A stretch of DNA of 64,000 nucleotides from Bacteroidota bacterium (GCA_016706255.1 JADJJZ010000029.1:554675-618674); one strand, 5' to 3'; positions 34,113 to 55,889 are shown, numbered from the stretch's first letter. Translations and numbers: made by a program. The notes: generated by a model from the sequence alone, not told the origin.

Positions 34113-34345
34113 GCTTACGGAGCTGTTGATGACAATGATTGAAAAAATATAAATGTTTGTCCGGGATGGGGTTGCGTTTCTAAAAAAAGATTATTCTTAA
34201 AAAAGCCTGCAAAAAATTAGAACGATGATGCACCTATCTACTGCAAATAAATTCATCATATTTCCGTGTCCCAAAGGCTTGTTTTTTTATGAGAATTTAT
34301 TACAAATGGTTAAAATGTTGCTTTCACAGTTACCTCAAAAAACAT

Positions 34346-34353
34346 TATCTTAG
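34346..34353 (+). promoter_or_regulatory. conserved TAYCTTAG box (candidate -7 promoter element) upstream of paralog A
   Basis: TATCTTAG lies 16 nt before the ATG at 34370. The same box and spacing occur upstream of B and G, and 19 nt upstream of E. It resembles TAnnTTTG. Confidence 0.35.
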
Positions 34354-34369
34354 CTTTAATATTATCTCC

Positions 34370-36303
34370 ATGAAGATTATAGTATTCATACTGGTGTTCA
34401 CAGTTGGCTTTAATACGCTAGCACAAATACCGGAAATCGATTGGCAAAACACTTATGGTGGGTCAAGTTGGGATATTCCCTGGGCTATTATGCAAACACC
34501 TTCAGACAGTGGATATATAGTTGCAGGAGTTACCGAATCTACAGACGGTGATATTTTAGAAAATGCAGGTATTTATGATTATTGGGTAGTTAAATTAGAT
34601 AGTCTTGGTGAAATAATATGGCAAAAAACCTACGGTGGTTCTAGTATAGATGAATGTGAAGAAATTATTTCAACTGGGGATGGCGGCTATTTATTAGTTG
34701 GTTATACCTATTCAGACGATGGTGATATTTCATATTCGCACGGAAGTGTTGATTATTGGATTATTAAAATTAATAGTAGTGGTGAATTGGAATGGGAAAA
34801 AACTTACGGTGGGTCTAAAGGAGATTTTGGACAAAAAGCTATCATGCTGCCTTCAGGTAATTTTGTTATAATTGGCAACTCACAATCTAGCGATGGTGAT
34901 ATTTCAATGCACCACGAGGGTTTTGATACACCAGAAGACATTTGGATTATCGAAATTAATTCTTTTGGTGATTTGATTTGGGAGCATAGCTATGGTTCAT
35001 CAAATGTTGAAAATGCACGTGATATTATTTTAGATATGGATGCTATGGTAGTAACTGGTTATACATATGGGGGTTCAGACGGAGATATTGAGTCCTCTGA
35101 TGGTGCATCCGATTATTGGGTATTTAAAATAAATTTATTTGGGGACATTATTTGGGAGAGCACTTTTGGTGGTGATGATTATGACTATGGTGCATCAATT
35201 GGTCAATTGCAGAATGGCGAATATATTGTTTGCGGAACAACCTCATCTACAGATGGTGATATAATTGATTTTCATGGAGGATATTCGGATGCATTTATAG
35301 TAATTATTGACAGTCTTGGAAATTTAAAAAACTCTTTTTGCTATGGTGGAAGTAATTATGACTCAAGTTATGATTTAAAGATAGTTGACGATAATAGCAT
35401 TTTAATTTCTGGAACTTCCTCTTCAATTGATGGGGACTTAACTGAAAATAATGGTGACGCTGACTTTTGGATAATTATGGTTGATAGCTCAGGTCTTATC
35501 AAATGGCAAAAATCTTTAGGTGGTACATTAGACGAATATGCTATTTGTTTATCACTCACCCAACAACTTAATTCTTATGCTGTGGCTGGTCGCACCCACT
35601 CTTCAGATGTAGATTTAGACTTTAATCATGGTAATTATGATTTCTGGGTAGTTAAATTAGATATCTGTGAAAATAAATATTTCCTTGATAACGACGGCGA
35701 TGGTTTTGGTGATATTACTAATGATTCAAGTGCATGTGATATACCTTTGGGATATGTGATTGATTCAACCGATTGTAATGATTCATTAAATTTTATAAAT
35801 CCTTCAGTTAAAGAAATTTGCAATTACATTGATGATAATTGTAACAGTGAAATTGATGAAGGTCTAACATTAATACTTTCATTTGAAGATTTAGACAGTG
35901 ATAGTTATGGCAATGAATTAATTGATTCTATCGCATGTGAAATTCCTCCGGTTACGTTTTATCCAACACCGACTGCAACGACACCAATCCCGACATCAAC
36001 CCCGGCGCACCGGAACTCCTCAACGGCCTCGACGACGATTGCGACCAAATTGCTGATGAAGGTTTAGCAATAACAGATATTGTAAAAAATACAATAAGTA
36101 TTTTCCCGAATCCGGTAAATAATACATTATTTATTCAATCGGATGCAACACAACAAATAACAATTGTAAATCAATTAGGAGAAGAAATATTATACACAAA
36201 TTTATTTATAGGTTTAAATACAATTTCGGTAGCAGATTTTGCGAGTGGTGTGTATTGGGTGAAAGTGGAAAATGGGGAGATGGTGGTTTGGGTGAAGGAG
36301 TGA
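34370..36303 (+). pseudogene. family-1 T9SS cargo paralog A (propeller-like repeats, 2 Cys-rich MopE-like modules, CTD); single 1-nt deletion
   Basis: The listed ORF 34289..36067 ends in out-of-frame text (CEIPPVTFYPTPTATT...KLLMKV*). At 35948-35949 the sequence is CC, where paralogs have CCC (AATTCCTCCCGGTTACG). Restoring one C reads CEIPPGYVLSNTDCNDTNPDIYPGAPELLNGLDDDCDQIADEGL plus the CTD, ending at TGA 36301-36303. The real start is probably MKIIVFILVF at 34370. Confidence 0.75.
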
Positions 36304-36482
36304 GTGAGGGGCTAGATTGAAACAGCCATTGAACATCCATTGAATCAAAATTGAACAAAATTGAACGAGCCCGATAGCCGTCGGGAGAATCAAAATTGAG
36401 ATTGGTTATTCGCATTAAAATTTTGATTCAATTTTAAAATTTATAAAATTTGAAATGATGTAAACAATATTTACTCAAAATT
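36304..36482. repeat. conserved 3'-flanking module of family-1 gene blocks (ATTGAAC-rich, with an 11-bp-stem hairpin)
   Basis: AGATTGAAACAGCCATTGAACATCCATTGAATCAAAATTGAACAAAATTGAAC... Hairpin GAATCAAAATT (36387-36397) / AATTTTGATTC (36419-36429). Homologous copies at 45909-46100 and 53879-54047. Confidence 0.75.
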
Positions 36483-36801: not shown

Positions 36802-38942
36802 ATGAAAATTTATTTATTTATCCTCTTTGCTGTTTTAAACCTAACTGCACAGGCACAAGAACCTGAAATACAATGGCAAAAGGCATTTGGAGGGGCAGGG
36901 TACGATGATGCATATTCAATTTTCGAAACTTTAGACAATGGGTTTATTGTTAGCGGTGATACTTGGTCAAATGATGGGGATGTAACCGATTATAATGGAT
37001 CAGGTGACTTTTGGATTTTAAAGTTAAGTAGCGATGGAGAAGCTGAATGGAAGGAAACATATGGTGGTAGTGGTTGGGAGGAATCCTACAAAATTATCCA
37101 AACTAGTGACTTAGGATTTTTAGCGGTAGGATTTTCCACTTCAAGCGATGGAGATTTAACACTAAACCAAGGAGATCAAGATTTTTGGATTCTAAAACTT
37201 GATGAATCAGGGGCTATTCAATGGCAAAAAACTTTAGGAGGCTCAGGTTCTGATAGGGCATACTCTGTTCAACAAACAACTGATGGAGGCTATGTGGTTG
37301 CGGGACTTTCTTCGTCATCTGATGGCGATGTTACAGGAAATCATGGCGCTGCTGATTTTTGGGTAATCAAGTTAAATATTTTTGGTGATTTGATTTGGCA
37401 AAAGTCTCTAGGAGGTACACAAAACGATTATGCTAAATCCATTATTGAAATTCCGGGCGAGGGGTTTGTCGTAACTGGATATGTTGAGTCTAATACAGGT
37501 GATGTAACTGGAAATAATGGTGAGAGTGATTATTGGGTTGTGAAGTTATCAGAAGCTGGAGATATTATATGGCAAAAATGTTTTGGGGGTACAAATTTCG
37601 AATTTGCAAATTCATTAGCTCGAACAAGCAACAACGGATTTCTTATTCTTGGTTATACATTATCTGACAATGGTGATGTATCAGGTTTCCATGGTGGTTA
37701 TTCAGATTATTGGCTAATTAATATAGATAGTTCTGGAGCGTTACTTTGGCAAAAATGTTTTGGGGGAACCGCAACAGATCAAGGATTTTCTATTTGCTCA
37801 ACCAATGATAGTTCATATATACTTACCGGGTATTCTGGTTCAAATAATGGTGATGTCACAGGGCATCACGGTGGAGCGTTATACCCTGATTATTGGGTAA
37901 TAAAAATTGATACAATAGGAAATATTGTTTGGCAAAAATCATTAGGTGGCAATTCAAGTGATGAGTCTTTTTCTGTTGTCCAAACTTCAGATACAGGTAT
38001 TGCTATAGCGGGATGGGCTTTTTCTACTGATGGTGATGTTACGGGACATCATGGTGTGGCACTAAATAGAGATTTGTGGATTGTAAAATTAGGCATGCCT
38101 TGTATTGAAAATATGTTTTATGCAGATTTAGATGGTGATGGTTTTGGCAATATTTCATTAGATACATTAGCATGCGAAGCGCCCATTGGTTTTGTAAATG
38201 ATTCCACCGATTGCAACGATTTAAATCCCGAAATCCATCCCACATTAACAGATATTTGTAATGCCATCGATGATAATTGCAACGGATTAACCGATGAAGA
38301 TGCAACATTTGTTACCTATTTCGCAGATATTGATGGAGATACTTTTGGTGATATATTAAATGATTCAACTGCATGTAATGAATTAATCGGTTATGTGTTA
38401 GATAATAGTGATTGTAATGATTCTAATAATGCAATCTACCCCGGCGCCACTGAAATCTGCAACTACCTCGATGATGATTGTGACGGTATTACAGATGATA
38501 ATGTTACCTTCATTCAAAGTTTTATCGATGCTGATAACGACAATTTCGGCAACGCTGATTTTGATTCCATCGCATGCGAAATTCCTCCCGGTTACGTTTT
38601 ATCCAACACCGACTGCAACGACACCAATCCCGACATCTACCCCGGCGCACCGGAACTCCTCAACGGCCTCGACGACGATTGCGACCAAATTGCTGATGAA
38701 GGTTTAGCAATAACAGTTATTGTAAAAATACAATAAGTATTTTCCCGAATCCGGTAAATAATATATTATTTATTCAATCAGATGCAACACAACAAATTAC
38801 AATTGTAAATCAATTAGGAGAAGAAATATTACACACAAATTTATTTATTGGATTAAATACCATTTCGGTAGCAGATTTTGCGAGTGGTGTGTATTGGGTG
38901 AAAGCGGAGGATGGGGAGATGGTGGTTTGGGTGAAGGAGTGA
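36802..38942 (+). pseudogene. family-1 paralog B (about 7-8 propeller-like repeats, 3 Cys-rich modules); CTD out of frame through a 1-nt deletion in an A-run
   Basis: ORF 36802..38736 ends ...LAITVIVKIQ*. The A-run at 38724-38728 is A5, but A6 in copies A, D, G and H (GTAAAAAATAC). Restoring one A reads NTISIFPNPVNNILFIQSD...WVKE, ending at TGA 38940-38942. Confidence 0.75.
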
Positions 38943-38968
38943 GTGTGCGAAATTAAAATGAAAAAATT

Positions 38969-41202
38969 ATGTTTAAAATTCGCTCTATAAAAATATTAAT
39001 GGCATTGAAAATTAATGCTCGTTTTATTTGCATATTATTTTTTGGTTTTTCTTGTCTTTATAATAAAGCAAATGCACAAGCTACAAGTATAGAATGGTCA
39101 AATGCACTTGGCGGTCCGGGTTATGAAGATGCAACGGATGTTATTTATTCTAATGACGGAGGGTATCTGGTGGTTGCTAACTCAGGAGAAATAGGTGGTG
39201 ATGTGACAGGTTTTTATGGTGGAGCAGTAGACATTTGGTTAACTAAATTAGATAGTGCGGGAAATCTTGTTTGGCAGAAAAATTATGGGGGGTCAAATAT
39301 TGAAAAATCCCGTGCAGGTATTGCGACGATAGATGGTGGATATATTATCGTAGGCTATACTGGCTCTGAAGATCATGATGTAAGTTTTAACCATGGACTC
39401 ACCGATGCATGGGTTTTTAAAGTAGATTCAATAGGAAATATAGTATGGGAAAGGTCATATGGTGGTACAAAAAGTGAGCAAGGATGGGCGATTTGTGGAA
39501 CAGATGATGGGAATTTCGTATTCGTAGGATATAGCCATTCAAATAATGGTGATTTGACATCTCATTACGTTACCACGGCTACTTCAGACTTTTGGATTGT
39601 AAAAATCGACAATACAGGTAACATCATTTGGCAAAAATCATACGGCAGTACGGAAGATGACTATGCATATGGTGTTGTGGAGCTATTCAATGGTGATATT
39701 ACAGTCGGTGGAGTAACACAATGGGGAGATGGTGATGTAATAGGATTTCATGGCGGTATTGGGGTTGAAGATGGATGGGTAATTGATTTAGATTCTAATG
39801 GCGCATTGAAATGGAGTAAAGCTTATGGTGGTACAGACTATGACGTTATATGGGATATCACTAAGGCGTCTGATTCCACAATTCACTGTGTTGGACAAGC
39901 AAAATCATTTGATGGAGATATAACAGACCATAAAGGAACTCCGGATGATTATTATTTAGATGATTGCATGTATCTAAGGCTTGATTCTTCTGGGAATTTA
40001 CTTATAGAAAAGTGCTTTGGAGGGTCAGGCAGTGATGTTGGGTTCTCATTAAGTACAACAATGGATGGGACTGTTATATTAGGAGCTAATTCATCAAGTA
40101 ATGATGGAGATGTATCAGGACATCACGGGGGTGAATATACTAGTGATTTTTGGATAGTGAAGCTGGACTCTTTTGCTAATATCGAATGGTCTGTATCGCT
40201 TGGTGGTGATACCGCAGATGCCAGTTATTCCATCATTCAAGCACCTGATTCTGGGTATGTTACTGTTGGAATTTGTGTATCAGAAAATGGTGATGTAGTT
40301 GACCACTATCCAGGCACATTACACTGGGATTCCTGGGTGGTTAAACTCAATAAAACCTGTCCTGGAATTTTATATTATGCTGATAAGGATGGTGATGGTT
40401 ACGGTGATCCAACTGATATACAAATGTTTTGCTCAGATATGGTTGGATATGTATTAAATAATTTAGACTGTAATGATAATGATGCAGAAATTAATCCTAC
40501 AATAGCTGAAATATGTAACACGTTAGACGATAATTGTAATGGTATTGTTGATGAAGGCCTAGCATTGTTTACCCTTTTCGAGATTTAGATGGTGATACTT
40601 TTGGGAATGATACTGATTTTATAACATCGTGTCTTGAATATATTTCAGGTTTTGTTTTAGACTCAACCGATTGTAATGATACTAACGAATTTATTTTTCC
40701 GGGTGCTGAAGAACTCTGCAACTACCTCGATGATGATTGTGATGGTATTACCGATGATAATGTCACCTTCATACAAAGTTTTATTGATGCTGATAACGAC
40801 AATTTCGGAAACCCTGATTTTGATTCTATCGCATGCGAAATTCCTCCCGGTTACGTTTTATCCAACACCGACTGCAACGACACGAATCCCGACATCTACC
40901 CCGGCGCACCCGAACTCCTCAACGGTCTCGACGACGATTGTGATCAAATTGCTGATGAAGGTTTAGCAATAACAGATATTGTAAAACATACAATAAGTAT
41001 TTTCCCGAATCCGGTAAATAATATATTATTTATTCAATCGGATGCAACACAACAAATTACAATTGTAAATCAATTAGGAGAAGAAATATTACAAACAAAT
41101 TTATTTATTGGTTTAAATACCATTTCTGTAGCAGATTTTGCGAGTGGTGTGTATTGGGTGAAAGCGGAGGATGGGGAGATGGTGGTTTGGGTGAAGGAGT
41201 GA
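38969..41202 (+). pseudogene. family-1 paralog C (tandem twin of D); single 1-nt deletion in a T-run
   Basis: ORF 38969..40588 ends LALFTLFEI*. The T-run at 40575-40578 is T4, versus T5 in D at 42835-42839. Downstream sequence is colinear with D (equal length to the stop at 41200-41202) and encodes RDLDGDTFGND..., two more Cys-rich modules and the CTD. Confidence 0.8.
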
Positions 41203-41228
41203 GTGTGCGAAATTAAAATGAAAAAATT

Positions 41229-43463
41229 ATGTTTAAAATTCGCTCTATAAAAATATTAATGGCATTGAAAATTAATGCTCGTTTTATTTGCATATTATTT
41301 TTTGGTTTTTCTTGTCTTTATAATCAAGCAAATGCACAAGCTACAAGCATAGAATGGTCAAATGCACTAGGCGGCCCGGGTTATGAAGATGCAACGGATG
41401 TTATTCAATCTAATGACGGTGGCTATCTCGTTGTTGCTAACTCAAGAGAAGTAGGTGGTGATGTGACAGGTTTTTATGGTGGAGCAGTAGACATTTGGTT
41501 AACTAAATTAGATAGTTCCGGAAATCTTGTTTGGCAAAAAAATTATGGAGGTTCAAATTTTGAACAATCATGTTCCGGTATTGCGACTATAGATGGTGGA
41601 TATATTATAACCGGTTATTCTTCTTCTATGGATTTTGATGTCAGTTTTAATCATGGGCTTTTTGATGCATGGCTTTTCAAAATTGATTCAATTGGTAATT
41701 TACAGTGGGAAAAGTCATATGGAGGTTCCAAGACTGAAATAGCATGGGCAATATGTCCAACTCAAGATGGAAATTTTGTATTCGCAGGATATAGCTATTC
41801 AAATGATGGTGATTTGACATCTCATTACGGTACCACGGCTACTTCAGACTTTTGGATTGTAAAAATCGACAATACAGGTAACATCATTTGGCAAAAATCA
41901 TACGGCAGTACGGAAGATGACTATGCATATGGTGTTGTGGAGCTATTCAATGGTGATATTACAGTCGGTGGAGTAACACAATGGGGAGATGGTGATGTAA
42001 TAGGATTTCATGGCGGTATTGGGGTTGAAGATGGATGGGTAATTGATTTAGATTCTAATGGCGCATTGAAATGGAGTAAAGCTTATGGTGGTACAGACTA
42101 TGACGTTATATGGGATATCACTAAGGCGTCTGATTCCACAATTCACTGTGTTGGACAAGCAAAATCATTTGATGGAGATATAACAGACCATAAAGGAACT
42201 CCGGATGATTATTATTTAGATGATTGCATGTATCTAAGGCTTGATTCTTCTGGGAATTTACTTACAGAAAAGTGCTTTGGAGGGTCAGGCAGTGATGTTG
42301 GGTTCTCATTAAATGCAACAATGGATGGGACTGTTATATTAGGAGCTAATTCATCAAGTAATGATGGAGATGTATCAGGACATCACGGGGGTGAATATAC
42401 TAGTGATTTTTGGATAGTGAAGCTGGACTCTTTTGCTAATATCGAATGGTCTGTATCGCTTGGTGGTGATACCGCAGATGCCAGTTATTCCATCATTCAA
42501 GCACCTGATTCTGGGTATGTTACTGTTGGAATTTGTGTATCAGAAAATGGTGATGTAGTTGACCACTATCCAGGCACATTACACTGGGATTCCTGGGTGG
42601 TTAAACTCAATAAAACCTGTCCTGGAATTTTATATTATGCTGATAAGGATGGTGATGGTTACGGTGATCCAACTGATATACAAATGTTTTGCTCAGATAT
42701 GGTTGGATATGTATTAAATAATTTAGACTGTAATGATAATGATGCAGAAATTAATCCTACAATAGCTGAAATATGTAACACGTTAGACGATAATTGTAAT
42801 GGTATTGTTGATGAAGGCCTAGCATTGTTTACCCTTTTTCGAGATTTAGATGGTGATACTTTTGGGAATGATACTGATTTTATAACATCGTGTCTTGAAT
42901 ATATTTCAGGTTTTGTTTTAGACTCAACCGATTGTAATGATACTAACGAATTTATTTTTCCGGGTGCTGAAGAACTTTGCAACTACCTCGATGATGATTG
43001 TGATGGTATTACCGATGATAATGTCACCTTCATACAAAGTTTTATTGATGCTGATAATGACAATTTCGGAAACCCTGATTTTGATTCCATCGCCTGCGAA
43101 ATTCCATCCGGTTACGTTTTATCCAACACCGACTGCGACGACACCAATCCCGACATCTACCCCGGCGCACCCGAACTCCTCAACGGCCTCGATGATGATT
43201 GCGACCAAATTGCTGATGAAGGTTTAGCAATAACAGTTATTGTAAAAAATACAATAAGTATTTTCCCGAATCCGGTAAATAATATATTATTTATTCAATC
43301 GGATGCAACACAACAAATAACAATTGTAAATCAATTAGGAGAAGAAATATTACAGACAAATTTATTTATTGGATTAAATACGATTTCGGTAGCCGATTTT
43401 GCGAGTGGTGTGTATTGGGTGAAAGTGGAGGATGGGGAGATGGTGGTTTGGGTTAAGGAGTGA
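41229..43463 (+). CDS. family-1 paralog D: the only uninterrupted copy (signal peptide, propeller-like repeats, 3 Cys-rich MopE-like modules, T9SS CTD)
   Basis: 744-aa ORF. Repeats of the form W-Q-K-x-Y-G-G-S...DGGY...G-x-T-x-S-x-D-G-D-V...D-x-W-(I/V)-V-K-(L/I)-D. Cys-rich modules such as DCDDTNPDIYPGAPELLNGLDDDCDQIADEG. CTD ISIFPNPVNNILFIQSD...GVYWVKVEDGEMVVWVKE. Confidence 0.85.
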   Translation: MFKIRSIKILMALKINARFICILFFGFSCLYNQANAQATSIEWSNALGGPGYEDATDVIQSNDGGYLVVANSREVGGDVTGFYGGAVDIWLTKLDSSGNLVWQKNYGGSNFEQSCSGIATIDGGYIITGYSSSMDFDVSFNHGLFDAWLFKIDSIGNLQWEKSYGGSKTEIAWAICPTQDGNFVFAGYSYSNDGDLTSHYGTTATSDFWIVKIDNTGNIIWQKSYGSTEDDYAYGVVELFNGDITVGGVTQWGDGDVIGFHGGIGVEDGWVIDLDSNGALKWSKAYGGTDYDVIWDITKASDSTIHCVGQAKSFDGDITDHKGTPDDYYLDDCMYLRLDSSGNLLTEKCFGGSGSDVGFSLNATMDGTVILGANSSSNDGDVSGHHGGEYTSDFWIVKLDSFANIEWSVSLGGDTADASYSIIQAPDSGYVTVGICVSENGDVVDHYPGTLHWDSWVVKLNKTCPGILYYADKDGDGYGDPTDIQMFCSDMVGYVLNNLDCNDNDAEINPTIAEICNTLDDNCNGIVDEGLALFTLFRDLDGDTFGNDTDFITSCLEYISGFVLDSTDCNDTNEFIFPGAEELCNYLDDDCDGITDDNVTFIQSFIDADNDNFGNPDFDSIACEIPSGYVLSNTDCDDTNPDIYPGAPELLNGLDDDCDQIADEGLAITVIVKNTISIFPNPVNNILFIQSDATQQITIVNQLGEEILQTNLFIGLNTISVADFASGVYWVKVEDGEMVVWVKE

Positions 43464-43584: not shown

Positions 43585-45908
43585 ATGAAATCACTAATTT
43601 TTATCTACATGTTTATTTTTATAGTGCAAGCAAGATTTGCTCAAGCACCGGATATTATTTGGCAAAAATCTTTTGGTGGAAGTGATTACGACCAACCTGC
43701 TAAAATTATAACTGCTCCAGATTCTAGTTTTTTATTATTTGGTGACACGCGATCGGTGGATTTTGATATTGAGAATAATCATGGTTCACGAGATATTTGG
43801 TTATTAAACATTGATGTCAGTGGAAATTTACTTTGGGAAAATACTTATGGCGGTTCGAGCATTGATTATGGTAGATCGTTAACGATTGGTAATGATAATC
43901 AAGTATTAATGACAGGTTATACAAATTCGATAGACGGAGATGTCTCTGAATTTTATGGTATTTATGATTATTGGACTGTCGCCTCTGATTTATTGGGTAC
44001 AATTGTGTGGGGAAAAAATTTTGGTGGTAGTGAATACGATGGATCCAGAGGGATAAGTGAACTTTTAGATGGATATTTGATAATAGGTGACTCTAAATCA
44101 TCCGATGGTGATGTATTAGGGTTACATGGAATTACTAATTCAGATTTTTGGGTGATCAAAATATCTAATGAAGGCGACCTTATTTGGCAAAAATGCTATG
44201 GTTCCAATAACACAGAGCAACCAAACTCAATAGTTAAAACATTAGAAAATGAGTATATAATTGCTGGGACCACCTTAGGAGAAGGGGGCGACGTGACAGG
44301 TAATCATGGATCTACTGATATCTGGGTAATAAAAATTGATTCAGTAGGGAATTTAATTTGGCAAAAATGTTATGGTGGATCTGACGTTGATGGTATAAGT
44401 AAGATTTTAAATACACCTGATGGCGGATTTATACTCAGTGGTGAAACATATTCAAATAATGGTGATGTTTCAGGTTTTCATGGTGGAATAAATGATGGAT
44501 GGATAATAAAAATTGACAGCATTGGAAATATAGAATGGCAAAAGTGTTATGGCGGCTCTGGTAGTGATGAAATTTATTCTATTATTTTACTTGATGACGG
44601 TAATTTTTTATTCGGAGGTCGGTCTACTTCTGCAGACGGAGACTTAACTGAAAATAAGGATGGAAATGATTGTTGGTTAGTTAAAATTAACCCAGAAGGC
44701 GATATAATTTGGCAAAAATCGTTTGGAGGATATGATGAAGATGTAATTTATGATATTGTTGAAGCTGAAAATGGGGATATTATTTTTTTAGCCGAAAGTC
44801 TTTCTTCTGATGGTGATTTAACTTTAAATATGGGAAATTGGGATTTTTGGGTTGTGCGATTAGGTTATTGTACAACCAAATATTTTGAGGACACCGATGG
44901 CGATGGTTACGGAGATATTTCTTCAGATACATTATCTTGCGAATTACCCACGGTTATGTTTTAGACTCCACCGATTGCAACGATTTAAATCCCGAAATCC
45001 ATCCAACATTAACAGATATTTGTAATGTGATTGATGATAATTGTAACGGATTAACAGATGAAGATGCAACATTTGTTACCTATTTCGCAGATATTGATGG
45101 TGATACTTTTGGTGATGTATTAAATGATTCAACTGCTTGTAATGAATTAATTGGTTATGTGTTAGATAATACCGATTGCAACGATTTAAATCCCGAAATT
45201 CATCCAACATTAACAGATATTTGTAATGCCATTGATGATAATTGTAACGGATTAACAGATGAAGATGCAACATTTGTTACTTATTTTGCAGATATTGATG
45301 GAGATACTTTTGGTGATATATTAAATGATTCAACTGCATGTAATGAATTAATCGGTTATGTGTTGGATAATACTGATTGCAACGATACCAATAATGCAAT
45401 CTTCCCCGGCGTCACCGAACTCTGCAACTACCTCGATGATGATTGTGACGGAATAACAGATGATAATGTCACCTTCATTCAAAGTTTTATTGATGCCGAC
45501 AACGACAATTTCGGAAACCCTGATTTTGATTCCATCGCATGCGAAATTCCACCCGGCTACGTTTTATCCAACACCGACTGCAATGACACCAATCCCGACA
45601 TCTACCCCGGCGCACCGGAACTCCTCAACGGCCTCGACGACGATTGCGACCAAATTGCTGATGAAGGTTTAGCAATAACAGATATTGTAAAACATACAAT
45701 AAGTATTTTCCCGAATCCGGTAAATGCGATTTTATTTATTCAATCGGATGCGATACATAAAATTACTATTGTAAATCAATTAGGAGAAGAAATATTATAC
45801 ACCAATTTATTTATCGGTATAAATACCATTTCTGTAGCAGATTTTGCGAGTGGTGTGTATTGGGTGAAAGCGGAGGATCTGGAGATGGTGGTTTGGGTGA
45901 AGGAGTGA
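43585..45908 (+). pseudogene. family-1 paralog E (propeller-like repeats, 4 Cys-rich modules, CTD); single 1-nt deletion
   Basis: ORF 43585..44964 ends SCELPTVMF*. ORF 44937..45908 continues the same protein in another frame. Adding one G to the GG at 44952-44953 reads CELPTGYVLDSTDCNDLNPEIHP. Confidence 0.75.
44973..45374 (+). repeat. 2 x 201-bp in-frame tandem duplication inside paralog E (one Cys-rich module plus linker)
   Basis: GATTGCAACGATTTAAATCCCGAAAT... recurs at 44973 and 45174, and the next unit begins at 45375. The translations DCNDLNPEIHPTLTDICN(V/A)IDDNCNGLTDEDATFVTYFADIDGDTFGD(V/I)LNDSTACNELIGYVLDNT are nearly identical. There is a single copy in B (~38208-38408). Confidence 0.85.
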
Positions 45909-46161: not shown

Positions 46162-46194
46162 GTTTACGAAGTGATAAATTAAAGATTTAATCTT

Positions 46195-46330
46195 TTACAA
46201 ATACAGTTGTAGTATACAAATTCCCTGTATACAAGTAAATTAAATATAAACCAGCGCTTAATTCAGAAGCATCAAAATTAAATGGTGATTGAATTTTATT
46301 GATTAATTCCAATTTAACGAATATTGACTT
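46195..46330 (-). pseudogene. 3' remnant (CTD end only) of a minus-strand family-1 gene homologous to paralog I
   Basis: 46195-46300 aligns with 54141-54250. On the minus strand it reads ...SAGLYLIYLYTGNLYTTTVFVKD*. No upstream gene body remains, because paralog-unrelated gene F starts at 46484. Confidence 0.7.
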
Positions 46331-46483: not shown

Positions 46484-49060
46484 ATGAGTAACCAAAAACA
46501 CCCCTTTTTGATACTATTGATGACTTTTGTTGTCTTTTGTAATTCTGGATATAGCCAAACACCAGACATGCGAATAGTCTATCTAAGTTCAGAGTCAGGA
46601 GAACCACTTGGCTATAATGGTAACATAGAACTTCTAAATAGTGTTTTTACCCCCAGTGGATGGGAGCATTTATACTATGAATCAATTGATACATCAGGGT
46701 TGTTTTCTAATGAAACTTGTCTTCTGTTTTTGGAGGGTAGCTATTCCACTTTTTCTGATTTGACGGATTTCTATATAGATTATTATTATGAAATCGAGCA
46801 GTATGTTTTTAACGGCGGTCACCTTTTTGTTAATATGTATTCTGCCGGTAATATATTTCTTGGATTTGATAGTATCAATAAAATTGATAATGGATTCGGT
46901 TCGATTTACGGCTATCATGATGATGATTCTTTGAATTCATTATTTTTTGGTCCACTTTATCCAATAACAAATCCCCTTGTTGGTATATACGGTGGATTTG
47001 GTCCACAAGCAGGTTATGGTACATTTTCCGGAGGTGACTATGATGTATATTTGTTTGATTTAACAGAACAATCTTTCGGAGGAGATACCTCTGCATATAG
47101 AGAAATTGCTATTGGGAAAATATTTGGTTCAGGAGAATTAATATTTGCAAATTTGACAATTGGTAATTGGGTGGACTATACTGCCACTTATAAAAATTTG
47201 CGTACAAATATTCTCTGGAAACTTTCACCATGTTTACATGCTGAAAATGACATAGGCGTTCAAGCATTAATAACTCCTGCGAATTCTTGCAATTTAACTG
47301 CTGAAGAATCTTTAAATATTTTGGTTCATAATTTTGGCTTCGCAGACCAAGATACATTTGATCTGAGTTTTCAGATTGATGGCGGTGCAATTATCACGGA
47401 ATCCTTCTCAGAAAATTTATCAGCATATTTATCTGATACAATTTCCTTTGTTGCAACTGCCGATTTTTCTGAATGTGGAGCGCATGAAATAAAAGTATGG
47501 ACTAATTTATTGAGCGATACGATATATCAAAACGATACTTTAATATATACAGTCGCGAATATATGCGCTTCTGAATCTACTATTGGTTTACCTAATGAAA
47601 TTTGCTATTTAAGTGATCTTATCATTGCCAACCCTGAGGTTGGAGGAGGTTATTGGGAAGGGCTTGGAATTATTGATGGAGATTTGGGAGTTTTAGACCC
47701 TGAAATTATAGGTGCAGGAAATGATGCTGTTATTTCTTACACATACCAAACAGCAATAGATTATACTCGCCAAATAATTCCATTTGAACCACCCGCATTT
47801 ACTGACTCAACTATTGTTTCATTAATATTAAATGATGATGTGGATACACTCTTATTACCTTTTGATTTTGTATTCTTTTCTAATTCCTACGATGTTTGTT
47901 ATCCTGCAAGTAATGGATATATTGCATTTGGGGAACCACATGACACTTGGTATATAAGCATCCCAGATGTTGGTGGCATAAACAATTTATTAGCTCTTGC
48001 AGGATATGACCTGAACCCAACAACCGGAGGAAGTATTTACTATTCGATTACCGGGTCGTTCCCTTATCGTCAATTACAATTACGATATTATGATGTACCT
48101 CTTTCAATCTCACCAGATCATTTTATTGATGTAACAACGGTATTATATGAGACCACTAATATTATTGATATATTCGTTGATAAATTGCCAGATGTTGGTG
48201 TATTAGGTTTTGTACAAGGAATCTCAAATATTGACGGAACTCAATATTATTATACAAAAACAACGGGAACTCCAGTTTGGTTTATAGGGGCAAATGATAC
48301 AGCCTTCCGATTTATTCCAACTTTATGCCCTCGTACCATTTTTGATACAATTCATATTGTTGGAAATGATACAGAAGACCTTTTAGGCCCGGATACTTTA
48401 TTTTGTTTCGGAGATAGCGTTGAACTACTGTCAAATACCAGTAGTAGTTATTATTTATGGAATACAGGGGATACAACACAATCAATTTTCGTTGACGAGA
48501 CAGGATTATATACCATTGAATTAGAATACATTTTGGGATGCAATATTATAGATACAATTAATGTTATAGAGCTAGACAGCATTATTTTAAATATTTCTTC
48601 GACACCTACAGATACAGACGTAAATACAGGTACCGCAACTGTAGAGGTGATTTCAGGTGGAGTAGCTCCATATACATATCTTTGGGACACAGGTGAAATA
48701 GCTTCAACAATTGAAAATCTTACCGCAGGTATCTATGTGGTCGAGGTTACAGACTCCTTCGGGTGCAAAACCACTGCATCTGTTGCAGTTGATAAAAATG
48801 TTTCGATTGGAGATTTTGAGACCTATAATTTATTAACTATTTTCCCTAACCCATCGACTAATTCATTTAGTGTTAAATTAAATTCAAACGTATATGAAGC
48901 AAATTGTGAATTGACTAATCTTGATGGAAAAGCAATTTTTAAAAGTAAAATTAATTCAGCTAACTTTGAAATAAACACCTCGCAATTTGTTAGAGGAGTT
49001 TATTTTTTAATAATTAGAACAAACTCAGGAAACTACTTTTCAAAAGTAGTGCTGCAATAA
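46484..49060 (+). CDS. large T9SS-secreted protein with an SprB-type repeat, unrelated to family 1
   Basis: 858 aa with a signal peptide. SprB-repeat-like segment (TATVEVISGGVAPYTYLWDTGEIASTIENLTAGIYVVEVTDSFGCKTTASVAV). CTD (LLTIFPNPSTNSFSVKLN...GVYFLIIRTNSGNYFSKVVLQ). Confidence 0.75.
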   Translation: MSNQKHPFLILLMTFVVFCNSGYSQTPDMRIVYLSSESGEPLGYNGNIELLNSVFTPSGWEHLYYESIDTSGLFSNETCLLFLEGSYSTFSDLTDFYIDYYYEIEQYVFNGGHLFVNMYSAGNIFLGFDSINKIDNGFGSIYGYHDDDSLNSLFFGPLYPITNPLVGIYGGFGPQAGYGTFSGGDYDVYLFDLTEQSFGGDTSAYREIAIGKIFGSGELIFANLTIGNWVDYTATYKNLRTNILWKLSPCLHAENDIGVQALITPANSCNLTAEESLNILVHNFGFADQDTFDLSFQIDGGAIITESFSENLSAYLSDTISFVATADFSECGAHEIKVWTNLLSDTIYQNDTLIYTVANICASESTIGLPNEICYLSDLIIANPEVGGGYWEGLGIIDGDLGVLDPEIIGAGNDAVISYTYQTAIDYTRQIIPFEPPAFTDSTIVSLILNDDVDTLLLPFDFVFFSNSYDVCYPASNGYIAFGEPHDTWYISIPDVGGINNLLALAGYDLNPTTGGSIYYSITGSFPYRQLQLRYYDVPLSISPDHFIDVTTVLYETTNIIDIFVDKLPDVGVLGFVQGISNIDGTQYYYTKTTGTPVWFIGANDTAFRFIPTLCPRTIFDTIHIVGNDTEDLLGPDTLFCFGDSVELLSNTSSSYYLWNTGDTTQSIFVDETGLYTIELEYILGCNIIDTINVIELDSIILNISSTPTDTDVNTGTATVEVISGGVAPYTYLWDTGEIASTIENLTAGIYVVEVTDSFGCKTTASVAVDKNVSIGDFETYNLLTIFPNPSTNSFSVKLNSNVYEANCELTNLDGKAIFKSKINSANFEINTSQFVRGVYFLIIRTNSGNYFSKVVLQ

Positions 49061-49685: not shown

Positions 49686-51618
49686 ATGAAGATTATAGTA
49701 TTCATCTTGGTGTTTACACTTAGCTTTAGTGCGGATGCTCAGGTGCCTGAAATCGAGTGGCAGCGGAACTATGGCGGTTCTGGTTGGGACATTCCTTTTA
49801 AAATTTTATTTACTCCATCAGATAGTGGTTATATAGTTGCAGGCGTTTCAGGGTCTGATGATGGTGATCTTACAGAAAGCAATGGCTATGATGATTATTG
49901 GGTGGTTAAACTGGATAGCGTAGGAAACATTTTGTGGCAAAACACTTATGGAGGCTCAAGTTTTGATCAATGCAATGATATAGTGTTAACATCGGACGGA
50001 GGTTATTTATTGGCCGGATATATTTATTCAAATGATGGCGATATTACATTAAATCATGGAGACGTAGATTATTGGGTGGTTAAAATCAGTGTAACAGGTG
50101 TAATCGAGTGGCAAAAATCATTTGGTGGTGTTGAAACCGATTTTGCGAACCATATACTTACATTACCATCTGGTAATTTTATGATTATTGGCGGGTCAAG
50201 TTCTAACGACGGGGATGTTTTAGAACACCACAATACTCCTACGCTGACAAACGATATTTGGGTAATTGAAATTGACCCTATTGGCAATTTACTTTCGAGT
50301 AAATGTTATGGTTCCTATTTTGATGAAAGAGCCGGGGATTTAATTTTATTAGATGATGGCATTGCGATAGTAGGAACCACATTTGGTTCAGGTGGTGATG
50401 TTACCTCTCATGATGGTGCCACAGATTTTTGGTTATTTAAAATTGACTTCGATGGCAATATAATCTGGGATCGTTCATTTGGGAGGAGATGATTATGATT
50501 GGGGATATTCAATAGGTAAAAAAACAAACGGAGATTTAGTTATTTGTGGTATTACTTCTTCAGTCGATGGTGATATTATTGATTATAATGGAGGGACAGC
50601 TGATGCTTTGGTAGTTATAGTAGATAGTATAGGTAATTTAGAAAGTTCGCATTGTTTCGGTGGTAGTTTGTATGATGAAAGCGATGATCTAATTGTAATT
50701 GATAATAATCAAATTCTAATATGTGGTTCAACAGCCTCAATTGATGGTGATATGACAGAAAATAATGGGAGTAATGATTTTTGGATAGCCATGATTGATA
50801 CAATAGGAAATGTTCATTGGCAAAAATCACTCGGCGGTTCAATAGATGAAGCAGCTTATGCAATTGCTACAACTCCAGATGAAAATTCGTATATAACCGC
50901 AGGGCGTAGTCACTCATCTGATGTTGACGTCGAAGCAAACTTTGGGAGTTATGATTTTTGGGTAGTAAAATTAAATATTTGTGAAACGCTGTATTTTTTG
51001 GATGCAGACGGTGATGGATTTGGTGATATTACTAATGATTCAAGTGCATGTGATATACCTTTGGGATATGTTATTGATTCAACCGATTGTAATGATTCAT
51101 TAAATTTTATAAATCCTTCAGTAAAAGAAATTTGCAATTACATTGATGATAATTGCAATGGTGAAATTGATGAAGGTCTAACATTAATACTTACATTTGA
51201 AGATTTAGACAGTGATAGTTATGGCAATGAATTAATTGATTCTATCGCATGCGAAATTCCACCCGGTTACGTTTTATCCAACACCGACTGCAACGACACC
51301 AATCCCGACATCTACCCCGGCGCCCCCGAACTCCTCAACGGCCTCGACGACGATTGCGACCAAATAGCTGATGAAGGTTTACCTACAACAGATATTGTAA
51401 AAAATACAATAAGTATTTTCCCGAATCCGGTAAATAATATATTATTTATTCAATCAGATGCAACACAACAAATAACAATTGTAAATCAATTAGGAGAAGA
51501 AATATTACACACAAATTTATTTATTGGATTAAATACCATTTCGGTAGCAGATTTTGCGAGTGGTGTGTATTGGGTGAAAGTGGAAAATGGGGAGATGGTG
51601 GTTTGGGTGAAGGAGTGA
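49686..51618 (+). pseudogene. family-1 paralog G (A-like ends, diverged core); single 1-nt insertion
   Basis: ORF 49605..50492 ends WDRSFGRR*. ORF 50479..51618 continues as GGDDYDWGYSIGKK. The run at 50481-50483 is GGG, and GG would read SFGGDDYDWG, matching the family repeat. The real start is probably MKIIVFILVF at 49686. Confidence 0.75.
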
Positions 51619-51644: not shown

Positions 51645-53878
51645 ATGTTTAAAATTCGCTCTATAAAAATATTAATGGCATTGAAAATTAATGCTCGTTT
51701 TATTTGCATATTATTTTTGGTTTTTCTTGTCTTTATAATAAAGCAAATGCACAAGCTACAAGTATAGAATGGTCAAATGCACTAGGCGGTCCGGATTATG
51801 AAGATGCAACAGATGTTATTCAATCTAATGACGGAGGCTATCTTGTGGTTGCTAACTCAGGAGAAGTAGGTGGTGATGTGACTGATTTTTATGGTGGAGC
51901 AGTAGATATATGGTTGACTAAATTAGATAGTTCAGGAAACCTTATTTGGCAGAAAAATTATGGGGGGTCAAGTATTGAAAAATCCCGTGCAGGAATTGCG
52001 ACGATAGATGGTGGATATATTATCGTAGGCTATACTGGCTCTGAAGATCATGATGTTAGTTTTAACCATGGACTCACCGATGCATGGGTTTTTAAAGTGG
52101 ATTCAATAGGAAATATAGTATGGGAAAGGTCATATGGTGGTACAAAAAGTGAGCAAGGATCGGCGATTTGTGGAACAGATGATGGGAATTTCGTGTTCGT
52201 AGGATATAGCCATTCAAATAATGGTGATTTGACATCTCATTATGGTACTGCAGAGACTTCCGATTATTGGATTGTAAAAATCGACAATACGGGTAATATC
52301 ATTTGGCAAAAATCATACGGCAAGTCGGAGGATGACTATGCATATGGTGTTGTGGAGCTATTCAATGGTGATATTACAGTCGGTGGCGTAACACAATGGG
52401 GAGATGGTGATGTAATAGGATTTCATGGCGGTATAGGGATTGAAGATGGATGGGTAATTGATTTAGATTCTAATGGAGCATTGAAATGGAGCAAAGCATT
52501 TGGTGGTACAGACTATGATGTTATATGGGATATCACTAAGGCGTCTGACTCTACAATTCACTGTGTTGGACAAGCAAAATCATTTGATGGAGATATTACC
52601 GACCATAAAGGAACTCCGGATGATTATTATTTAGATGATTGCATGTATTTGCAGCTTGATACAATGGGAAATTTACTAATGGAGAAATGTTTTGGTGGCA
52701 CAAGCGGCGATGCTGGATTTTCAATTTGTAAGACATTTGATAGTGGAGAAGTGATAGCCTGTAATTCTGCGAGCGATGATGTGGATGTGGCAGGCCATCA
52801 TGGTGGGACAGACCTTTACGATTATTGGATTATAAAATTAGATTCTTTAGCAAACATTGAGTGGAATATTAATATTGGAGGAATTTCATCTGATGAAAGT
52901 TATTCGATTATTCAACTTACAGATTCTGGATTCTTAGCAGTTGGTCTAAGTAATTCAATAGATGGAGATGTCTTAGACCACTACCCCGGACCTTCCAACT
53001 GGGATTCCTGGGTGGTTAAACTCAATAAAACCTGTCCGGGTATTTTATATTATGCAGATAAAGATGGTGATGGTTTTGGTGATCCAACTGATATACAAAT
53101 GTTTTGCTCAGATATGGTTGGATATGTATTAAATAATTTAGACTGTAATGATAATGATGCTGAAATTAATCCTACAATAGCTGAAATATGCAACACGATA
53201 GATGATAATTGTAATGGTATTGTTGACGAAGGTCTTGCGTTGTTTACGCTCTATCGAGATTTAGATGGAGATACTTTTGGGAATGATACTGATTTTATAA
53301 CATCGTGTCTTGAATATATTTCAGGTTTTGTTTTAGACTCAACAGATTGTAATGATACCAATGCGTTAATTTTTCCGGGTGCTGAAGAACTCTGCAACTA
53401 CCTCGATGATGATTGTGATGGTATTACAGATGATAATATCACTTTCATACAAAGTTTTATTGATGCTGACAACGACAATTTCGGCAACGCTGATTTTGAT
53501 TCCATCGCATGCGAAATTCCACCCGGTTACGTTTTATCCAACACCGACTGCAACGACACCAATCCCGACATCTACCCCGGCGCCCCCGAACTCCTCAACG
53601 GCCTCGACGACGATTGCGACCAAATTGCTGATGAAGGTTTAGCAATAAGAGATATTGTAAAAAATACAATAAGAATTTTCCCGAATCCGGTAAATGCGAT
53701 TTTATTTATTCAATCGGATGCAACACATCAAATTACAATTGTAAATCAATTAGGAGAAGAAATATTGCACATAAATTTATTTATAGGATTAAATACAATT
53801 TCGGTAGCAGATTTTGCGAGTGGTGTGTATTGGGTGAAAGCGGAAAATGGGGAGATGGTGGTTTGGGTGAAGGAGTGA
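51645..53878 (+). pseudogene. family-1 paralog H (C/D-like); 1-nt deletion in the signal-peptide T-run
   Basis: The ATG at 51645 encodes MFKIRSIKILMALKINARFICIL, as in C and D. The T-run at 51714-51718 is T5 versus T6 in C and D, so this frame stops after 40 codons. The body ORF 51704..53878 can start only at a TTG, giving MHIIFGFSCLYNKANAQ, which lacks the charged n-region. Confidence 0.7.
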
Positions 53879-54047
53879 GTTGGGGGTAAGATTGAAACAG
53901 CCATTGAACAGAATTGAACAAAATTGAACAAAAATTGAACCATTCAGATTGCTATCAGGAGAATTAAAATTGAGGTTGGATTTTCGCATTAAAATTTTGA
54001 TTCAAATTTAAAATTTGAAATGATGTAAACAATATTTCCTCAAAATT
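53879..54047. repeat. conserved 3'-flanking module (copy 3)
   Basis: Homologous to 36304-36482 and 45909-46100. Confidence 0.75.
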
Positions 54048-54107
54048 GTCCTGCATGTTATTTTGTAGGGACGTATTGCATGCGTCCTTACAAATAATAG
54101 GCAGGAC
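54048..54107. repeat. type-B long hairpin element
   Basis: GTCCTGCATGTTATTTTGTAGGGACGTATTGCATGCGTCCTTACAAATAATAGGCAGGAC. Confidence 0.85.
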
Positions 54108-54140
54108 GGTTACGAAGCGATAAATTAATGATTTAATCTT

Positions 54141-55889
54141 TTACAAATACAGTTGTAGTATACAAATTCCTGCATACAGGTAAATTAAATATAAACCTGC
54201 GCTTAATTCAGAAGCATCAAAATTAAATGGTGTTTGAATTTTATTTTGTTGAAAAATTAAATCCCCATTTATATTATAAATAGTAAGTAAAGGCGTATTT
54301 ATATTTTCGAATTGAATAGTCAGCTCATTGGTGGCCGGGTTTGGAAAAACTGATAAACCTATCAATTCTGTTTCTATGATTTCCAGGCCATCATCTGCAA
54401 TTTGATTGCAGTCATCATCAATGCCATTTAAAATTTCGGTTGCTCCTGGGTTAATAAACGGGTTGTTATCATCACAATCACCACCTACTAAAACAAATCC
54501 ATCATTAAGTGTGCATGAATAACTATAATTATCGCTATCGCCATAAGTATCATCATCTTGGTCAGGATATACAAGCATTTGGTCACATTCTTTATCCAAC
54601 TTAAATATCCAAACATCAGGATATTCAGAGTCGCCGTAATGGGATGCAATATCTCCATCAGTTGATCTACAAACACCTTGCACAACATAGCCATTACCCA
54701 ATTGTTGAATGTTGTAAAAGTTTTCATTGTTATAGCCACCAAAACAATTTGACCACTTAATAATACCTGCTGTGTCCATTTCAACAATCCATATATCAAC
54801 GGGCTTTGCAGAATAATGGTTACCAAAAACATCGCCATTATGTGGGGAAGCAGTAAAGCCAGATACGATAAACGAGGAATCATTGATAGGTAATAATTGT
54901 TGCCCTTCATCACCACTGGTTCCACCGTAACATTTTGACCATAATAAATTACCAATCGAATCAATTTTACCTACCCACATATCCTGCCATAATGGTGCAG
55001 AGTGATTTCCAGATATATCTCCATCATCTGAATAAGTATAACCGGAAAAGTAGTATTCATTTTCACCAATTTCAGCTATTGAATAAATTAAGTCGTAGTC
55101 AGAGCCCCCATAAAGTTTCACCCAAACCAGTTCACCTGCTTCTGATAGCTCAATAATATATCCGTCCCAAGATGGTAATTCAGGTGATTTTGTGTATCCT
55201 GTTAACAAATAATTACCATCAACATTTTGCATTACTGAAAAGCTTTCGTCATCATTTTCAGTCCCTAAAACTTTAATGAATAAGAGCTCTCCTTCTTGTG
55301 AAATTTTTCCAAAAACAATATCAACATAATCAGCTACTCCGAAATGTGTTCCTATCAATCCATCATCTGATGTACTTAAGCCAGCAAAATAAATTTCGTT
55401 TTCATTATTTATTCCAATATCTATTATGGCGTCATCATAAGAACCCCCAACTGATAATTCCCATTCGAGTAATCCATTTGAGTCAACTTTGATTACCCAC
55501 ATATCTGAAAATCCATAATTAATTGAAATATCGCCACCTTCTGAAACTGTGTACCCGGCAATAACAAAACCACCATCACTAGTTTGTACCATATCTTTAG
55601 GAATATCTGAGGATTCCCCTCCATAAGTATAATCCCATAGTAGTTCACCATTTTTGTCAATTTTATAAATCCAATAATCAGTTTGTTCTGGCTCACTACT
55701 CACATCATAATCGTTAGAATTAGTTTGTGCTGCAATTACCATCGAAGAATCTTCCAAAATTACAAACCCTGCGGGCCAGTCATAAAAACTACCACCATAA
55801 TTTTTCTCAAATGAAAGATTATAAGGCTGGGCATTTGATATTAAAACCGCAATCAGAGTAAAAACTATAAGTAAAAGTAACGGCTTCAA
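54141..55889 (-). CDS. family-1 paralog I (minus strand; propeller-like repeats, 1 Cys-rich module, CTD); last CTD strand apparently frameshifted
   Basis: 582-aa ORF ending ...GLYLIYLYAGICILQLYL*. The plus-strand run at 54169-54170 is CC, versus CCC in remnant 46223-46225. With one extra base the end becomes YAGNLYTTTVFVKD*, with the stop at 54133-54135. That is a canonical CTD terminus. Confidence 0.75.
   Translation of the reverse strand: MKPLLLLIVFTLIAVLISNAQPYNLSFEKNYGGSFYDWPAGFVILEDSSMVIAAQTNSNDYDVSSEPEQTDYWIYKIDKNGELLWDYTYGGESSDIPKDMVQTSDGGFVIAGYTVSEGGDISINYGFSDMWVIKVDSNGLLEWELSVGGSYDDAIIDIGINNENEIYFAGLSTSDDGLIGTHFGVADYVDIVFGKISQEGELLFIKVLGTENDDESFSVMQNVDGNYLLTGYTKSPELPSWDGYIIELSEAGELVWVKLYGGSDYDLIYSIAEIGENEYYFSGYTYSDDGDISGNHSAPLWQDMWVGKIDSIGNLLWSKCYGGTSGDEGQQLLPINDSSFIVSGFTASPHNGDVFGNHYSAKPVDIWIVEMDTAGIIKWSNCFGGYNNENFYNIQQLGNGYVVQGVCRSTDGDIASHYGDSEYPDVWIFKLDKECDQMLVYPDQDDDTYGDSDNYSYSCTLNDGFVLVGGDCDDNNPFINPGATEILNGIDDDCNQIADDGLEIIETELIGLSVFPNPATNELTIQFENINTPLLTIYNINGDLIFQQNKIQTPFNFDASELSAGLYLIYLYAGICILQLYL

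Follow-up and report, generated by a model that had tools for sequence, protein, structure and literature searches.

A tandem array of type IX secretion cargo genes with conserved tails and diverged propeller heads, probably shaped by general homologous recombination

Introduction

Conserved ends that are maintained by gene conversion around variable middles are classical in several families of bacterial surface proteins. In the Hop/Bab family of Helicobacter pylori, general recombination among several complete genes causes inter-paralog conversion and chimeras, and the genes keep conserved ends and variable middles. Neisseria pilE/pilS, Borrelia vlsE and Anaplasma msp2 are organized around one expression site and promoterless, truncated silent cassettes. 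Here we analyze a window of 64,000 nucleotides from the genome of a Bacteroidota bacterium (GCA_016706255.1, JADJJZ010000029.1:554675-618674; positions are counted from the first nucleotide of the window), which contains a tandem array of eight paralogous genes, named A to E and G to I, for type IX secretion system (T9SS) cargo proteins. Such cargo forms much of the Bacteroidota cell surface, and how its repertoire changes in uncultured environmental lineages is little known.

A first-pass annotation, made from the sequence alone, had likened this array to loci of recombination-driven surface-protein variation with many silent copies, and its author was not aware of a description for T9SS cargo. 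Recombinational modularity has already been documented for T9SS cargo, namely in Porphyromonas gingivalis (PMC5266723). Because the general mechanism is known from other surface-protein families, our finding is illustrative and not surprising. The interpretation that we consider probable is that the array has been shaped by general homologous recombination, that several of its copies are expressed together, and that the frameshifts interrupting seven of them are likely to be Nanopore errors.

Results

Eight paralogs share one architecture

A listing of open reading frames (ORFs) and tblastn searches with copies D and I recovered all eight paralogs that had been annotated between 34.4 and 55.9 kb: A-E, G and H on the plus strand and I on the minus strand (Table 1). 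Every copy encodes a signal peptide, a seven-bladed beta-propeller, one to four modules of family PF11617 (21 in total) and a type A T9SS sorting domain. The earlier naming of the MopE-like module was correct, with PF11617 scoring 28-144 bits against the Pfam cutoff of 27 (101-144 bits where three or four stretches match). The sorting domain, likewise predicted, exceeds the cutoffs of both TIGR04183 (NCBIfam; 34.5 bits in D and 35.7 bits in I, cutoff 23) and PF18962 (Pfam; 40.7 bits in D and 41.9 bits in I, cutoff 27), and its profile matches solved T9SS sorting domains. The hydrophobic N-terminus ends in AQ in every copy and forms a helix at residues 2-31 of the model of D, from which a Sec signal peptide is predicted; the AQ ends fit the Bacteroidetes habit of an N-terminal Gln after signal-peptide cleavage.

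In the AlphaFold model of D, built from a 71-sequence alignment with a predicted local distance difference test score (pLDDT) of 88, the helix of the signal peptide (domain limits 1-36) is followed by 28 strands that form seven four-stranded blades (41-460, mostly pLDDT >90), by three small modules with one beta-hairpin each (the MopE modules, ~465-665), and by a C-terminal beta-sandwich at 676-744, the sorting domain. The structure prediction that had been suggested for this copy thus returned a seven-bladed propeller. The earlier reading of seven or eight repeats of ~52 aa as a propeller was right about the fold and wrong about the repeats: a blade hidden Markov model (HMM) finds exactly seven blades, of ~58-60 aa, in 8/8 copies. 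Propeller models of the SBBP or PQQ type, proposed at the same time, are not supported by HMM scores, with NF047494 (LipL53) reaching 34 bits against a cutoff of 400 and PF06739 giving no match at E <=0.01. The nearest solved relative is instead the propeller of CylK (sequence profile E 1.5e-39; Foldseek E 7e-26, target-normalized TM-score 0.56). This match spans only CylK residues 252-653, and the propeller of the window proteins directly follows the signal peptide.

We take the propeller head to be the ligand-binding part, carried on a stalk of MopE-motif modules, and the proteins are probably surface-anchored. At least 14 other genes in the 64-kb window have a sorting-domain match, some of them under the cutoff; no por or gld genes were identified in the window.

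Tails are homogenized and heads are anciently diverged

Self-BLAST divides the copies into subfamilies (A, G), (C, D, H), B, E and I; within the second of these, C and D share 93% identity across 3 kb, with a tandem period of 2257 bp. We calculated synonymous divergence (dS; Nei-Gojobori) on codon alignments, defining the tail as the last module plus the sorting domain (140 codons). Tail dS is 0.11-0.35 among all seven plus-strand copies, whereas propeller dS ranges from 1.4 to saturated between different subfamilies; for A and G, the two values are 0.11 and 2.07. These two copies are 87-97% identical across ~450 bp upstream, 56-71% in the propeller and 93-97% in the last 660 bp. The identity of tails and flanks thus stems from a recent common origin through gene conversion or recombination, and not from constraint at the protein level. 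The tail of copy I has 36-39% aa identity and saturated dS against all other copies, and this inverted, non-homogenized gene acts as an internal control for the homogenization of the others.

The conserved flanks around a variable core that had been noticed in the first-pass annotation are therefore real, and the low tail dS next to saturated propellers argues for recombination, not selection alone. The ends are near-identical in a narrower sense than was claimed: the 3' end in the seven plus-strand copies but not in I, and the 5' leader within A/G and within C/D/H but not between subfamilies.

A more local footprint is present in copy C. At the informative sites among C, D and H, about 60 consecutive sites have C=H (D coordinates ~41500-41830) and then about 190 have C=D, such that C is a mosaic, H-like at ~aa 100-200 and D-like over the rest. 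Judged by these sites, the ~350-bp H-type tract in C is an inter-paralog gene conversion. Module types combine as (a)-(t) in A and G, (b)-(c)-(t) in B, (b')-(hybrid)-(c)-(t) in E and (d)-(e)-(t) in C, D and H. The terminal module t is common to all seven plus-strand copies, and the hybrid module E2 is the product of the 201-bp internal duplication.

Haplotypes in other metagenomes differ by whole genes

Six contigs from independent assemblies (JGI 3300030384, four PRJEB14051 runs and ERZ27250670), 97-99% identical to the window, read A-B-F-G, where F is an unrelated gene that splits the array. They carry B sequence up to 38727 and are E-type from 38760 on, from which it follows that ~7 kb is missing (38760-45726, i.e., the B sorting domain, C, D and most of E). 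A further haplotype, B-I, occurs in contig L091 and in four similar places: a gene that is 100% B-type through the modules ends in a sorting domain that is an E/H mosaic; the sequence downstream is H-type, copy I follows in convergent orientation, and C through H are absent. The comparison of the locus across related populations, which had been proposed as a check, thus revealed variation in copy number and content, with breakpoints in the conserved tail. Chimeric short-read assembly was considered as a source of the B-F and B-I joins and judged unlikely: the longest exact repeats among the B, E and H tails are 62-97 bp, shorter than the assembly k of 119-127 that the contigs name.

Copies A, B, G, H and I were found repeatedly in other assemblies. 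C, D and E have no match of >=90% in a collection of 5.8 billion protein clusters and were seen only in this metagenome-assembled genome (MAG); their nearest relatives outside the array, own paralogs aside, are 61% (D) and 42% (E) identical. Contig L089 carries a tail that is 90% identical over 760 bp on an unrelated propeller, in contig L088, where the genomic context also differs, a B-type propeller (93% identity across 1.6 kb) is followed by another tail, and a dispersed family member of the same MAG, P0037, also differs in its tail. The same species was not found among the GTDB species representatives, in which the best locus is 43% identical.

The propeller-PF11617-PF18962 plan is very common (>5200 matches scored among 8000 candidates examined), and NCBI labels the family 'MopE-related protein' or 'T9SS type A sorting domain-containing protein'. 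Other Bacteroidota MAGs also contain tandem arrays, with 4-5 copies each (L043, L068, L063 and L045). At L043 (positions 2177-15464, from a Bacteroidia MAG of another lineage), five tandem genes of ~885 aa lie 8 bp apart and encode the same propeller family with a non-MopE C-terminal region; their heads are 50-65% and their C-terminal halves 73-93% identical, which hints that head-variable, tail-conserved arrays may recur. The conserved-tail pattern was not seen in the L068 array, and so it is not universal.

Frameshifts are probably consensus errors

As sequenced, D alone is uninterrupted, and the seven other copies each contain one 1-bp indel in a short homopolymer (tracts of 2-6 nt; Table 1). 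The description of all eight copies as full-length therefore applies only after repair: correcting a single base gives 585-774 aa for each of the seven, with no further lesions, and restores the C-terminal end EMVVWVKE, present in D, in the six plus-strand copies and NLYTTTVFVKD in I. Six of the seven lesions are deletions, and ~15 kb contains no nonsense mutations, larger deletions or second hits.

Independent short-read assemblies, ~97-99.7% identical, contain intact versions of copies A, B, G, H and I. An intact H, 99.7% identical, occurs in L001; A (644 aa) is intact in L083 and L087, A and B are both intact among L082-L087, and the 713-aa B (P0137) recurs in seven independent contigs; L084 has an intact G, and I is intact as P0124/P0126 (585 aa). 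Over the coding sequence compared, indels against the short-read contigs are confined to the frameshift sites and one compensated pair in H, and gene F and two neighboring unique genes have zero indels. H differs from L001 at six places, four of which are indels, the compensated pair included. This pair of 1-bp indels (52322-52325) alters two residues, KS vs. ST, and is likely to be another long-read consensus error.

Six of the seven frameshift sites lie in sequence that has 84-99% identical copies elsewhere in the array. The pattern of the lesions points to residual long-read errors where short reads would map to several places. The 1.08-Mb MAG contig (1,082,966 bp) points to a long-read assembly, and the isolate and tig-contig names of sibling MAGs correspond to those of a study in which R9.4.1 Nanopore reads were assembled with CANU and polished once with Illumina reads by Racon (PMC8012365); we infer that the window derives from this data set, and presume its source to be BioProject PRJNA629478. 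The most likely origin of the seven frameshifts is Nanopore error at homopolymers that was left uncorrected in repeat-rich sequence, not the silencing of copies. The reading of many silent copies in the first-pass annotation does not hold: every copy has its own start and signal peptide, and the frame of each is full-length once any single-base lesion is repaired.

Upstream regions contain hairpins and no recognizable switch

The gaps B-C, C-D and G-H measure only 24-27 bp, a spacing which suggests that the closely placed copies form operons. A CATTAYCTTAG box lies 16 nt 5' of the ATG in A, B and G, with a variant in E; no family copy has the Bacteroidetes -7 motif TAnnTTTG in its upstream sequence. 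An in-frame extension of 27 codons (MRIYYKWLKC.FHSYLKKHYLSFNIIS) precedes the signal peptides of A (34289-34369) and G (49605-49685) and includes the CATTATCTTAG box. It is conserved because the whole 450-bp A/G upstream flank is 87-97% identical; the extension is probably not translated, and the upstream ATG at 34289 is probably spurious.

The intergenic regions also hold a family of near-perfect palindromes of 60-70 nt (core TGTAGGGRCG-N9-CGYCCCTACA; stems ~20-30 bp), whose free energies lie between -35 and -54 kcal/mol (z-scores -9 to -13). The core has 22 matches against a chance expectation of 2.3, and all are intergenic within 33-57 kb with the sole exception of one 1-mismatch match at 23937. 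The palindromes always lie between presumed transcription units, never between closely spaced genes. Contigs L082-L087 of the same species contain them as well, and L002 has a single one immediately upstream of its family gene. They could be repetitive extragenic palindromic (REP)-like elements or terminators. Searches of the whole window with Rfam (gathering thresholds) and a tRNA scan returned nothing.

Several switching devices were tried against the locus and rejected. An invertible promoter does not fit, in that the inverted repeats are self-palindromic hairpins, a single orientation occurs in all 6-7 independent assemblies, and no recombinase, reverse transcriptase or mobile-element gene is found in the 30 flanking ORFs scanned. 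Slipped-strand phase variation fits no better: the tracts are only 2-6 nt long, and the other assemblies all carry the in-frame length. A single expression site served by truncated or promoterless cassettes conflicts with the start codon and signal peptide of all eight copies. The cassette-type layout that had been proposed is therefore not borne out: there is no single expression site, truncated cassette, invertible promoter or long repeat tract, and no recombinase among the ORFs scanned.

Other features of the window

Gene F encodes 858 aa, with a large N-terminal region that has no Pfam match; other assemblies have it at 99% identity and call it at 846 aa, from a later start codon. The minus-strand remnant of a family gene that had been reported near 46195-46330 was confirmed: ~46190-46300 translates to NKIQSPFNFDASELSAGLYLIYLYTGNLYTTTVFVKD, an I-type sorting-domain end, within a segment 3' of E (45909-46300) with 84% identity to the DNA between H and I. 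The window proteins are MBK7443808-834 in NCBI (locus tags IPI65_), and an exact look-up of the NCBI copy-C protein gave no contig on record.

The neighbors of the array are OmpA-family and other T9SS cargo genes, and the window is rich in genes for secreted and surface proteins. Directly 5' of the array (31802-32968) is a gene for an OmpA protein with thrombospondin type 3 repeats; three more sorting-domain genes occupy 11.7-16.8 kb (from 11717), and 16951-20916 encodes a 1321-aa protein named 'lamin tail domain-containing protein' by NCBI. A second paralog family lies 3' of I, at 55954-56841 (-), 57340-58233 (-) and 60404-61318 (+). Its products of 295-304 aa are T9SS cargo unrelated to the array (compared copies 29% identical; E 8e-29, 3e-34), and all have a type A sorting domain, upstream of which is a domain with no Pfam match.

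Table 1. Coordinates of the array genes and associated features within the window
Feature	Position	Strand	Description
Copy A	34370..36306	+	644 aa once repaired; signal peptide, 7-blade propeller, 2 MopE modules, type A sorting domain
Copy B	36802..38945	+	713 aa once repaired; 3 MopE modules
Copy C	38969..41205	+	744 aa once repaired; 3 modules; start 24 bp past B
Copy D	41229..43463	+	744 aa; 3 modules; sole uninterrupted ORF; NCBI MBK7443827.1
Copy E	43585..45908	+	774 aa once repaired; 4 modules including a 201-bp internal module duplication; propeller at most 42% identical to any relative elsewhere
Remnant	46190..46300	-	3' end (sorting domain) of I-like gene
Gene F	46484..49060	+	Unrelated T9SS cargo splitting the array; SprB repeat and type A sorting domain
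Copy G	49686..51618	+	643 aa once repaired; 2 modules; partner of A
Copy H	51645..53878	+	744 aa once repaired; 3 modules; start 27 bp past G
Copy I	54133..55889	-	585 aa once repaired; 1 module; own diverged tail; as-sequenced ORF 54141-55889
Crossover interval	38727..38760	+	Start of B sorting-domain coding region; B-type to E-type in other-metagenome haplotypes
Conversion tract (D coordinates)	41500..41830	+	Matching part of C groups with H
Indel, copy A	~35947	+	1-bp deletion, CCC to CC
Indel, copy B	38723	+	1-bp deletion, A6 to A5, just 5' of sorting domain
Indel, copy C	40576	+	1-bp deletion, T5 to T4
Indel, copy E	~44952	+	1-bp deletion, CC to C
Indel, copy G	50481	+	1-bp insertion, GG to GGG, in unique core sequence
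Indel, copy H	51713	+	1-bp deletion, T6 to T5, in signal peptide
Indel, copy I	54168	-	1-bp deletion; last 11 residues replaced
Hairpin elements, 5 copies	33272..34112		60-70 nt perfect hairpins upstream of A
Palindromes 5' of A	33272-33332, 33483-33543, 33614-33676, 33925-33984, 34052-34112
Further palindrome cores	36499-36527, 46117-46145, 49277-49286, 49386-49414, 54064-54092, 57036-57064, 57162-57190

Discussion

The tandem array is real, recombination within it is well supported, and its gene number differs between strains. Under the interpretation that we favor, its products would be exported via Sec and then by the T9SS, each bearing a Ca-type (i.e., Ca-stabilized) propeller head on a MopE-module stalk of variable length. 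C, D and H would have arisen by tandem duplication, and gene conversion would carry tracts between copies with no dedicated switching device, such that the 3' tails of same-strand copies, and in the A/G pair also ~450 bp of 5' flank, would be held near-identical. The conserved tails could then act as homology blocks for unequal crossover, through which whole genes would be gained or lost and population-specific haplotypes formed; the inverted copy I would take no part. The expected outcome is concerted evolution of the tails, change in module number and strain-specific turnover of heads by birth and death. Several copies are probably expressed together, in units A, B-C-D(-E), G-H and I, and diversifying selection on surface recognition (adhesion targets, phage, grazers) may maintain their diverged heads or replace them. 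The description of the array as a recombination-driven variation locus therefore stands in its evolutionary sense, on the dS contrast, the tract in C and the haplotypes, but not in the sense of a programmed silent-cassette system.

If the seven frameshifts were true recent inactivations under relaxed selection, the family would be in decay. Its seven frameshifts in ~17.5 kb, against none in ~40 kb of other coding sequence, would accord with this, as would the site of the G lesion in unique sequence and the 1-3% divergence of the comparison contigs, which belong to other strains; however, a set composed entirely of 1-bp homopolymer indels, six of seven of them deletions and none a nonsense mutation, is the signature of R9.4 Nanopore consensus errors, and indels, the compensated pair among them, make up most of the H-L001 differences. 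We regard real decay as unlikely. A lower probability still is given to programmed antigenic or phase variation, by which copies silenced by frameshift, or used as donor cassettes, would switch the displayed propeller. Such a system would explain why a single homopolymer base puts seven of the eight copies out of frame, and it would be in keeping with conserved flanks around variable cores, the gene-conversion tract in C, haplotypes that differ between populations, and long hairpins that flank the units. But a start codon and signal peptide are present in each copy, and truncated cassettes are absent; the 24-27 bp spacing suggests operons, the scanned ORFs include no recombinase or reverse transcriptase, and the six to seven independent assemblies agree in the orientation of the upstream regions. 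In every other assembly the five testable frameshift sites are all 'on', and tracts of 2-6 nt are far below the length of known contingency tracts, those of the Neisseria, Haemophilus and Campylobacter loci being far longer.

The likeness of the tails might, on the other hand, have come from purifying selection alone, acting on ordinary old paralogs without recombination. The sorting domain and last module are functionally constrained, and in the L043 array of another lineage the C-terminal halves are also better conserved at the protein level. This explanation is refuted by the synonymous sites, which are conserved in the tails (dS 0.11-0.35) and saturated in the heads; moreover, the non-coding flanks of A and G are 87-97% identical, the tails of copy I and P0037 are equally functional yet diverged, the phylogenetic switches among C, D and H are sharp, and the strain breakpoints lie within tails. 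We grant it hardly any credence. The idea that the proteins are secreted alkyl-halide-activating enzymes of the CylK type, and not binding proteins, has the least probability of all: the best solved relative is indeed the CylK propeller, in which Ca2+ occupies each blade junction (PMC8916777), but the active site of CylK lies where the propeller meets an N-terminal Ca-binding beta-roll domain, and this domain provides Arg105 (PMC8916777). Because this catalytic domain is absent here, the match covering only CylK 252-653, such an enzyme is unlikely, and the nearby ORFs scanned include no halogenase or biosynthetic genes.

Several observations weigh against recombination among co-expressed genes with artefactual frameshifts. 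The frameshift in G falls in unique sequence, where short-read polishing should work. The short-read contigs are separated from the window by 1-3% substitutions and represent other strains, and the strains could hence truly differ at the frameshift sites. What connects the window with the Nanopore study is a set of accession and naming patterns, not a direct record. The promoter-like CATTAYCTTAG box is not statistically distinctive, its count in the window being not above chance, and the haplotypes, known from metagenome contigs, could in principle be assembly artefacts, although this is unlikely.

A bolder proposal, which we consider improbable, is a combinatorial diversification locus, in which the homogenized tails, perhaps together with the hairpins, would be maintained as recombination substrates, possibly with on/off switching by 1 bp. 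If true, heads could be rapidly gained, lost and reshuffled under pressure from phage or grazers, and environmental Bacteroidota would have a strategy of surface variation that has so far not been described for them.

Recombination by general means, as we favor, already gives the locus some interest as a clean and quantifiable case, in which tail and stalk evolve in concert, heads are anciently diverged, and whole genes are gained or lost by tail crossover among co-occurring strains. It suggests strain-level surface diversity in activated-sludge bacteria that bears on phage, grazers and floc adhesion. There is a practical warning as well: in MAGs based on Nanopore reads, arrays of paralogs can gather 1-bp frameshifts that resemble pseudogenes or silent cassettes.

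Comparison with described systems places both the parts and the whole. The propeller is of the same family as that of CylK (PDB 7FH6, 7RON), likewise seven-bladed and with a conserved acidic motif per blade; CylK, however, is a cytoplasmic biosynthetic enzyme whose N-terminal Ca-binding domain forms the active site, whereas the window proteins lack this domain and have secretion signals. The DCxD...PG..E.C...DDDC motif is shared with MopE of Methylococcus capsulatus, and there is a weak sequence match to the solved MopE chain 2VOV (E 1.2e-4). MopE is a copper-binding surface protein of a methanotroph, whereas here the motif forms one to four putative metal-binding stalk modules between the propeller and the T9SS signal. 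Our literature searches found no paper on MopE-motif T9SS propeller proteins.

At the level of the locus, the array has in common with cassette systems the clustering of related sequences, conserved flanks, variable cores and gene conversion, but each of its copies is a complete gene that has its own start and signal peptide. Conserved ends, variable middles, conversion and coexisting complete genes are also found in the Hop/Bab family of H. pylori. Those genes, however, encode beta-barrel outer-membrane proteins of a host-restricted pathogen and are located at dispersed loci with dinucleotide-repeat phase variation, whereas the present genes encode T9SS cargo of a free-living activated-sludge bacterium and are in tandem. 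Finally, the gingipain/HagA genes of P. gingivalis (PMC5266723) are also T9SS surface cargo with a conserved sorting domain, whose modules are shuffled by homologous recombination or allelic exchange into strain-specific mosaics. Those genes are dispersed, and they combine variable C-terminal adhesin modules with a conserved catalytic head; the window has tandem genes with a diverged head and a homogenized tail, and whole genes are gained and lost. The locus is a well-resolved new example of a known evolutionary mode, and not a new kind of system.

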